Both the position numbers and the translations under genes were made by a program. The notes under the pieces are model-generated. The model did no database searches and had not been told where the DNA came from. It was given only the letters and a program-made list of their open reading frames with translations. Shown piece by piece: positions 12,448-12,591 of a stretch of DNA of 14,562 nt (position 1 is the first letter of the stretch; every line of letters starts with the position of its first letter). Where the stretch lies: UHGV virus genome UHGV-0177146, one strand, 5' to 3'. This DNA is from a virus.

Positions 12448-12591
12448 AATTATCTTTGTAGATAAGTTATTAAGCTTACCTGTGAGTATGCGACCACAAA
12501 GGGTGAAAGGGTAAATTCTAGATTTAAACCCAACAAGGCACATCGCTACAGACCTTAAGCAAGTCTGGGTAGCTTATCTACAAAGATAATT
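12448..12591. repeat. 19-bp perfect inverted repeat (AATTATCTTTGTAGATAAG / CTTATCTACAAAGATAATT) flanking 106 nt
   Basis: Arms at 12448-12466 and 12573-12591 are exact reverse complements; the interior contains a mini-hairpin CAGACC-ttaagcaa-GTCTGG (12549-12568). Confidence 0.6.

Follow-up and report, generated by a model that had tools for sequence, protein, structure and literature searches.

The window, by which we mean the whole stretch of DNA analysed here (14,562 nucleotides of UHGV virus genome UHGV-0177146), is by sequence identity that of a Felix O1-like phage: its tRNA island is 94–98% identical to those of Felix O1-like phages, with UAB_Phi87 as the best match, and 238 records cover most of it. 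The island consists of 19 tRNAs, all on the plus strand between positions 11475 and 14473, interspersed with the small RNAs that we call Y-box RNAs. Among them, between the last of these RNAs (element D) and the gene for tRNA-Lys(UUU), lies a 144-nt unit bounded by a perfect inverted repeat, which is the subject of this study and is referred to as the element. The features of the locus are collected in Table 1. At the other end of the window, a region of about 1.7 kb (305–1985) contains no ORF of at least 40 aa and carries imperfect inverted repeats at 515–617, 1001–1028, 1456–1489 and 1609–1852, a weak Y-box-like match (1193–1257, E = 1) and a GACC...AGCAA motif at 421; from its sequence it could be a regulatory or ncRNA-rich region.

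Table 1. Features of the window discussed in the text, and matches of model R1 (built from element types 1 to 3) in distant phages.
Feature	Sequence	Position	Strand	Basis
Ro60-fold protein, 471 aa, DUF2828 + DUF7788/vWA; 1.1 kb upstream of the element	window	9894–11309	+	Pfam domains
Two sigma-70-like promoters (TTGACA), head of the island	window	11328–11448	+	consensus matches only
Y-box RNA	window	11645–11718	+	R2, E = 1.1e-5
Y-box RNA	window	11812–11872	+	R2, E = 1.7e-6
Y-box RNA	window	12226–12303	+	R2, E = 1.8e-5
Element D, Y-box RNA with tRNA-like domain	window	12316–12448	+	R2, E = 3.1e-5
P1, 5' strand (left arm and 5 more pairs)	window	12448–12471	+	MFE fold, covariation
H1, first internal hairpin, conserved block GAGUAUGCG in or near the loop	window	12476–12506	+	MFE fold
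H2, second internal hairpin, around the palindrome UCUAGA (type 3: ACUAGU)	window	12509–12531	+	MFE fold
H3, 5 bp (CAGAC/GUCUG), 9-nt loop CUUAAGCAA, abuts the P1 3' strand	window	12549–12567	+	
P1, 3' strand (right arm and 5 more pairs), stops 4 nt short of tRNA-Lys	window	12568–12591	+	
tRNA-Lys(UUU), always the next gene 3' of the element	window	12596–12671	+	
R1 match	L189			E = 2e-4
R1 match	L190			E = 4e-4
R1 match	L191			E = 0.015
R1 match	L107 (Yersinia phage P778)			E = 0.06
R1 match	L106			E = 0.16

The large gene upstream of the island is predicted to encode a protein with the Ro60 fold. The AF2 model of its product (pLDDT 88.6) finds Ro60 in all of its best 12 PDB matches (from frog, human, Deinococcus and the Thermus phage phiLo), with E values of about 3e-8 and, over the full length, TM scores up to 0.65. 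The Bas63 orthologue, gp130, has been interpreted in the same way in a preprint, where gp130 produced on its own from a plasmid or from T7 was enough to overcome the ppl defence and to restore plating on ppl hosts; some of the 'tRNAs' neighbouring gp130 were guessed there to be Y RNAs (PMC11482910). A small DUF5681 gene (9441–9812, plus strand) always lies immediately 5' of the Ro60-like gene in Ounavirinae-like loci, and may be part of the same module.

Four of the small RNAs of the island (elements A–D) have in common a helix in which UWCAGCAA follows the 5' strand. We define a Y-box RNA by a 7-bp helix, with UWCAGCAA after the 5' strand and UG after the 3' strand, and have studied its distribution in 151 diverse viral and metagenomic DUF2828 loci with 39–63% identity (including L030–L104 and L112–L187). 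Within 500 nt of the DUF2828 gene and in its orientation, the box with a complementary arm of at least 7 nt occurs 0.65–0.92 times per kb, over a background of 0.02–0.04 per kb; this is a 25- to 35-fold enrichment, with at least one occurrence in 80 of the 151 loci and 0–2 matches on the opposite strand of the same zones. The sequence AGCAA is also repeated within the distant Y-box RNAs, in their single-stranded interiors (17 seen, versus 2.4 ± 1.5 in shuffles). A covariance model, R2, was built from 43 Y-box RNAs of distant phages only; when applied to the window it returns exactly the four RNAs of Table 1, the next best match having E = 0.56. Covariation in the Y-box alignment is there by construction, the arms having been chosen as exact complements, and the independent evidence for these RNAs is therefore their positional and strand enrichment together with their blind detection by R2 in the window. 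Rfam has no entry for this family. In all, the Y-box RNAs are probably the cognate Y-type RNAs of the DUF2828-type Ro60-like proteins, a family that may be more important than the inverted repeat itself.

Element D deserves separate mention. Inside its Y-box stem it carries, in the order V-T-AS-D, a V hairpin, a T arm (GAAGGTTCGATTCCTTC), a closed acceptor hairpin (ACTCGGC-AGAT-GTCGAGT) and a D arm (GTGTAATGGTAGCAC), an architecture that has been described for YrlA (PMC4201824). The acceptor hairpin covaries in Maleficent and Sf13, and judging from its sequence element D looks like a circularly permuted tRNA, on the YrlA plan; a similar element is present at L030:8095–8230. With the four RNAs recognized by R2, the Ro60-fold gene and the YrlA architecture of element D taken together, the island can be described as an operon of tRNAs and Y-type RNAs that follows a Ro60-like gene, and the locus appears to be a phage Ro60/Y-RNA system.

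The inverted repeat that drew attention to the element could be confirmed. The arm AATTATCTTTGTAGATAAG occupies 12448–12466 and its exact reverse complement 12573–12591, with 106 nt between them, so that the 19-bp repeat is perfect, and its placement directly after element D and 4 nt before tRNA-Lys(UUU) is also as previously described. In a search of the window that allowed up to 3 mismatches there is no copy of the arm beyond these two; the two matches compare with 0.02 expected by chance, and 0 of 200 shuffles gave 2. With a repeat finder the arms reach 22 nt (95% complementarity), and in the minimum free energy fold of the RNA they become a helix of 24 consecutive pairs, 3 of them G·U, which we call P1. 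The 144-nt unit folds at −47.8 kcal/mol (z = −6.6), a value that was not equalled by any of 200 shuffles. P1 has the uninterrupted two turns of double-stranded RNA, about 20 bp or more, that are expected of an RNase III substrate, with 24 bp here and 22–25 bp in the clear homologues.

Inside P1, the core is made up of three hairpins of unequal conservation. The sequence block of H1 is common to type 1 and type 3 elements (the types are described below), and in the model alignment the type 1 H1 region resembles those of L190 and L191 (CCUGU.AG...CAC.AAG), while the H1 stems themselves vary from lineage to lineage. The helix of H2 has no covariation support: its pairing register in types 1 and 2 differs from that in type 3 and only the sequence block is conserved, and because of this inconsistency H2 was left out of the covariance model. 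H3 is instead found in every homologue, with stems that covary (cagac/gtctg, cagacc/ggtctg, caaacc/ggtttg, cagtc/gactg, ctgttc/gaacgg, aaagtc/gacttt) around a conserved loop of consensus CYUWAGCAA. We also considered H3 as a mimic of the anticodon arm of tRNA-Lys, as the two stems are alike in this phage (CAGAC/GUCUG versus CAGA/UCUG); the idea was dropped, there being no covariation between them across relatives. The architecture of the element is thus a terminal helix of 22–25 bp, a variable multi-hairpin core (H1 and H2), and a conserved H3 with an AGCAA-containing loop beside the 3' strand of P1.

Evidence that this architecture is formed in RNA comes from an alignment of 15 distinct copies of the element, which includes types 1 and 2 and a third type from the metagenomic relatives L105 and L112. 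The 23 aligned pairs of P1 are 99.4% paired, with both-sided changes in 9 of them; for P1 and H3 together (23 + 5 = 28 pairs) the corresponding values are 99.5% and 11 pairs. As a control, sliding the partner columns by 1–3 positions leaves 0–1 pairs with both-sided changes and 31–43% pairing; the observed covariation values were not matched in any of 500 shuffles, and RNAalifold agrees. The pairs that are not Watson-Crick are G·U in the plus sense and would be A·C on the other strand, and the covariance model of the element scores 166.6 bits on the plus strand versus 52.2 bits on the minus strand. Within P1, the outer 11 bp are better conserved than the inner part. The arms are thus conserved as a pair, with different sequences in each lineage and pairing kept throughout. 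Of the interpretations offered in the preliminary description, that of a stable stem-closed non-coding RNA is supported by the compensatory changes across alleles and genera and by the plus-strand wobble; that of an RNase III substrate is plausible from the length of the helix, and that of a mobile element finds no support.

The element is found in a small number of allelic forms at one site. Type 1, the form of the window, is present in about 190 records, in a single copy each; type 2 is present in about 60 records, which include some Felixounaviruses (for example fKMPT1) and the genera Mooglevirus and Suspvirus. Every Felixouna-, Moogle- and Suspvirus has type 1 or type 2 at the site. When the window is compared with fKMPT1, identity is 97.5% and 98.9% in the two flanks and only 44.7% in the element core, and among close relatives the type 1 copies differ by 1-nt indels inside the core. 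On this comparison, the element is an allelic cassette at a fixed site rather than an insertion that comes and goes.

More distant genomes, in which the upstream protein is 53–63% identical to that of the window, have an element of the same plan at the same place, immediately 5' of tRNA-Lys. For the phages with a Ro60-like protein 53–56% identical, the best match of R1 at each locus is the syntenic element (Table 1). Although unrelated in sequence between lineages, the P1 helices of the clear homologues measure 24, 23, 22, 23, 25, 23, 23 and 23 bp, and are separated by 0–8 nt from the first base of tRNA-Lys; the total size of the element across lineages is 141–166 nt. The closing helices of L188 and L106 are interrupted or shorter, and in L188 the spacer is longer and the next gene downstream is tRNA-Lys(CUU). 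Nothing was found with R1 in 149 distant DUF2828 loci, which confines the family to Ounavirinae-like phages and implies that the element is not a general partner of DUF2828-type proteins. Rfam has no match over 12448–12591, either at the gathering score or at E ≤ 10, and neither ARAGORN nor the Rfam tRNA clan detects the element as a tRNA or tmRNA. By these comparative standards, the element is a well-supported, previously undescribed structured RNA family, and its RNA-level structure, conservation and fixed position can be regarded as demonstrated. A literature search for transcriptomes of Felix O1 returned nothing useful.

Some other features of the island, and of the islands of relatives, were recorded along the way. 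Just before tRNA-Leu(UAG) ends a hairpin on the plus strand (13645–13734) with 26-nt arms, 85% complementary, and a 38-nt loop; its counterpart in L105 (8906–8993) has a perfect 20-bp stem and an 11-mer, TCTTTGTAGAT, in common with the P1 arm, and from its sequence the tRNA-Leu hairpin may be another site of the RNase III type. The gene for tRNA-Ser(UGA) (13392–13481) has no encoded CCA and ends in CC-U; in its flanks (13381–13491), a 10-bp inverted repeat (TCTTATTAGG / CCTAATAAGA) surrounds the gene and lengthens the acceptor stem, an arrangement that recurs at the tRNA-Ser of Yersinia phage P778 (L107:9506–9617). In the region 12845–13076, a strong promoter-like site (TTGACA-17-TATAGT, 12845–12873, plus strand) lies 5' of a frame reminiscent of a tmRNA tag (12923–12955), GCA AAC GAC AAT GTT TTT CTG GCA GTA GCT TGA TAG, which reads ANDNVFLAVA followed by two stops, where the E. 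coli tag is ANDENYALAA. This frame is kept with synonymous changes in Moogle- and Suspvirus and in L105, and is absent from more distant relatives; the Rfam tmRNA and tmRNA_permuted models match the region only below threshold, ARAGORN reports no tmRNA, and no tRNA-like domain was identified in it. Finally, in the corresponding tRNA islands of the more distant Ounavirinae-like phages, ARAGORN reports an odd tRNA-like gene ('tRNA-???') with a long insertion (L106:6600–6790, L189:6591–6661, L190:6598–6668, L191:6607–6681, L107:8000–8180), directly 3' of the Ro60-like gene in L106 and L189–L191 and about 1.6 kb downstream of it in L107.

We take the repeat to be the closing helix P1 of a conserved structured non-coding RNA gene of about 145 nt on the plus strand, and assign this reading a probability of roughly 0.6; the RNA itself is most likely a processed, stem-closed ncRNA. 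Two readings in which there is no RNA gene can be set aside with some assurance. The notion that the unit is a miniature mobile element or its remnant, lodged between element D and tRNA-Lys with arms that act in DNA as terminal inverted repeats, was suggested by the perfect 19-bp repeat around a short non-coding segment, and it may draw some further credit from the homing-endonuclease genes scattered through the tRNA islands of relatives. It is contradicted by the copy number, since each of about 250 records has the element once, the window contains no further copy, and BLAST against 5,426 complete E. coli genomes gave no match; by the site, which is fixed and never empty, every island-bearing relative having an allele there; and by the flanks, GGTCTGGT and TAATGGAAG, which share no direct repeat. 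Moreover, the arms diverge between lineages and still pair, with G·U on the plus strand only, and H3 covaries too, something for which a DNA element has no need. We consider a mobile origin very improbable, and a coding function more improbable still. The latter would have the element as part of a protein-coding gene, the minus-strand ORF 12286–12543, which starts with an ATG, would encode 85 aa and is listed as a hypothetical protein in UAB_Phi87 and some further records. This ORF is frameshifted in L004 and L005 and missing from the type 2 and type 3 alleles, close relatives differ by single-nucleotide indels, and it runs antisense through both the tRNA-like domain of element D and the element RNA; as judged from these alignments it is spurious. 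The occurrence of G·U pairs on the plus strand only, the strand preference of the model, the indels in the core and the broken minus-strand ORF together point to an RNA gene and to neither a protein gene nor a DNA palindrome. Other candidates were discarded on simpler grounds: a retron, as there is no reverse transcriptase, and a CRISPR-repeat mimic or type III antitoxin, as there are no similar direct repeats among the reported inverted-repeat pairs.

A different matter is what such an RNA would do, and here the main rival is a purely cis-acting stem, that is, an RNase III site or folding insulator placed between element D and pre-tRNA-Lys, around a core without function. That P1 is kept at two-turn length and abuts tRNA-Lys, that its outer 11 bp are better conserved than the inner part, and that other long helices adjoin tRNAs of the island (at 13645–13734 before tRNA-Leu, and as the 10-bp flank helix at tRNA-Ser) all speak in its favor. 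Nevertheless, a plain hairpin like that at tRNA-Leu would be enough for processing, whereas the element keeps a core of about 100 nt at nearly constant size (141–166 nt in total), with the conserved loop of H3 and the blocks GAGUAUGCG and CUAG across lineages, and for this rival to be the whole explanation is in our opinion unlikely. Less probable again is a role in RNA counter-defence, or as a decoy, independent of the Ro60-like protein, in which the variable core would track a variable host target. The sharp mosaicism between the window and fKMPT1 is typical of accessory or arms-race cassettes, and, in a view cited in PMC11482910, phages of this kind use their tRNA islands against defences that target tRNAs. 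However, no similarity to host sequence was found (E. coli genomes), the stem of H3 does not covary with the anticodon stem of tRNA-Lys, and there is neither an Rfam match nor repeat mimicry, which leaves this role distinctly improbable.

If the element is instead an RNA gene of the kind that we favor, the promoters at the head of the island would probably drive its transcription along with that of the tRNAs and Y-box RNAs; in the interval between those promoters and the element, no terminator-like site is recognized on the plus strand. RNase III cuts double-stranded RNA of about two turns with little sequence preference, and by this length rule an A/U-rich helix of 22–25 bp in an abundant phage transcript should be cut. 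Mainly because the length of the helix is so tightly conserved, we rate the odds that host RNase III cuts P1, by analogy with its known substrates, as about even. Such a cut would detach the tRNA-Lys precursor from the Y-box RNAs that precede it and would release a core RNA of about 120 nt closed by about 11 bp, while RNase P, acting at +1 of tRNA-Lys immediately downstream, would set the other 3' boundary or trim the remainder.

At odds clearly below even, the released RNA would then work with the Ro60-like protein as one more Y-type RNA, the fifth of the locus and an atypical one, touching the protein through H3 and carrying its variable hairpins as exchangeable modules. H3 (CAGAC-CUUAAGCAA-GUCUG) can be read as a Y-box stem that has lost its body and differs by one base in the box, its loop contains the AGCAA that is repeated inside the distant Y-box RNAs, and the L106 homologue carries the box after its own closing stem (AGAAUCU-UUCAGCAU). 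R2 finds no match to the element or to H3 in the window at E ≤ 10, and the Ro60 motif (GGUCCGA; GNCGAAN0-1G; 'CGAA') is not present in or next to P1 in types 1–3; an exact GCCGAAG is confined to the core of the Sf13 allele, and L190 and L191 have CACGAAG, neither of them conserved. Because of the miss by R2 and the absence of the canonical motif from P1, we file the element in neither the Y-box nor the Y RNA family. It should also be considered that gp130 by itself counters ppl (PMC11482910), which means that the element RNA is not needed for that activity. A bolder version, which we regard as rather unlikely, is that the element represents a new class of Ro60-associated RNA, in which the two-turn double-stranded handle would recruit host RNase III or another factor that measures dsRNA, the box-like AGCAA hairpin would dock the Ro60-like anti-defence protein, and the rapidly exchanged core, of which phages otherwise about 98% identical have two alleles, would specify the target; if true, the element would be an RNA adaptor coupling Ro60 to RNA processing in infection.

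These observations bear on phages of practical interest. Felix O1-like phages are widely used in typing and therapy, and in their records the region of the element is either unannotated or lies under a spurious ORF. The Ro60-like protein of a close relative (Bas63 gp130) counters a bacterial defence (PMC11482910), and its RNA partners have so far only been guessed: the element and the four Y-box RNAs provide concrete objects for binding, processing and knockout work. The conserved two-turn helix is also a clean, testable case of the use of host RNase III in a phage tRNA operon.

It remains to compare the element with known systems. With MITEs it shares a perfect inverted repeat around some 100 non-coding bases, and it differs from them in being single-copy, at a fixed locus, without target duplication or empty sites, and with a wobble covariation that is specific to one strand. 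With the Y-box RNAs it shares the island, the strand and presumably the transcript, and H3 resembles a Y-box stem without a body; in contrast, it is not matched by R2, so that it falls outside that family as defined by the model, its closing helix is much longer, and it occurs only in Ounavirinae-like phages, while Y-box RNAs are found beside the DUF2828 genes of very diverse phages.

The comparison with Y and Yrl RNAs is closer in some respects. These RNAs are recognized, among other things, by being encoded within 4 kb of a Ro60 gene (PMC4201824), and among phages Yrl1 and Yrl2 are present in phiLo (PMC12135203). The element follows a Ro60-fold gene at a distance of 1.1 kb and in the same orientation; a long stem formed between its two ends encloses a large, structured interior; and it is one of several such clustered RNAs, among which element D is a tRNA mimic in the manner of YrlA. 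At 144 nt it is slightly longer than the usual 80–130 nt, with a multi-branched interior. It departs from these RNAs in its stem, which lacks the canonical Ro60-binding motif and is an uninterrupted, unbulged 24 bp, the box-like motif being found only in the loop of an internal hairpin, and in the nature of the protein, which is a DUF2828-type Ro60 homologue rather than an annotated TROVE protein and is only a putative partner of the element.

Stems processed by RNase III bracket stable RNAs in several well-known cases, among them the rRNA precursor stems and the early sites of T7, and in the tRNA cluster of T4 the species I RNA is cut by RNase III in vitro. The likeness of the element to these systems is one of layout only, in which a helix of about two turns is formed by sequences that flank a stable structured RNA, within a polycistronic precursor, in the tRNA cluster of a coliphage.
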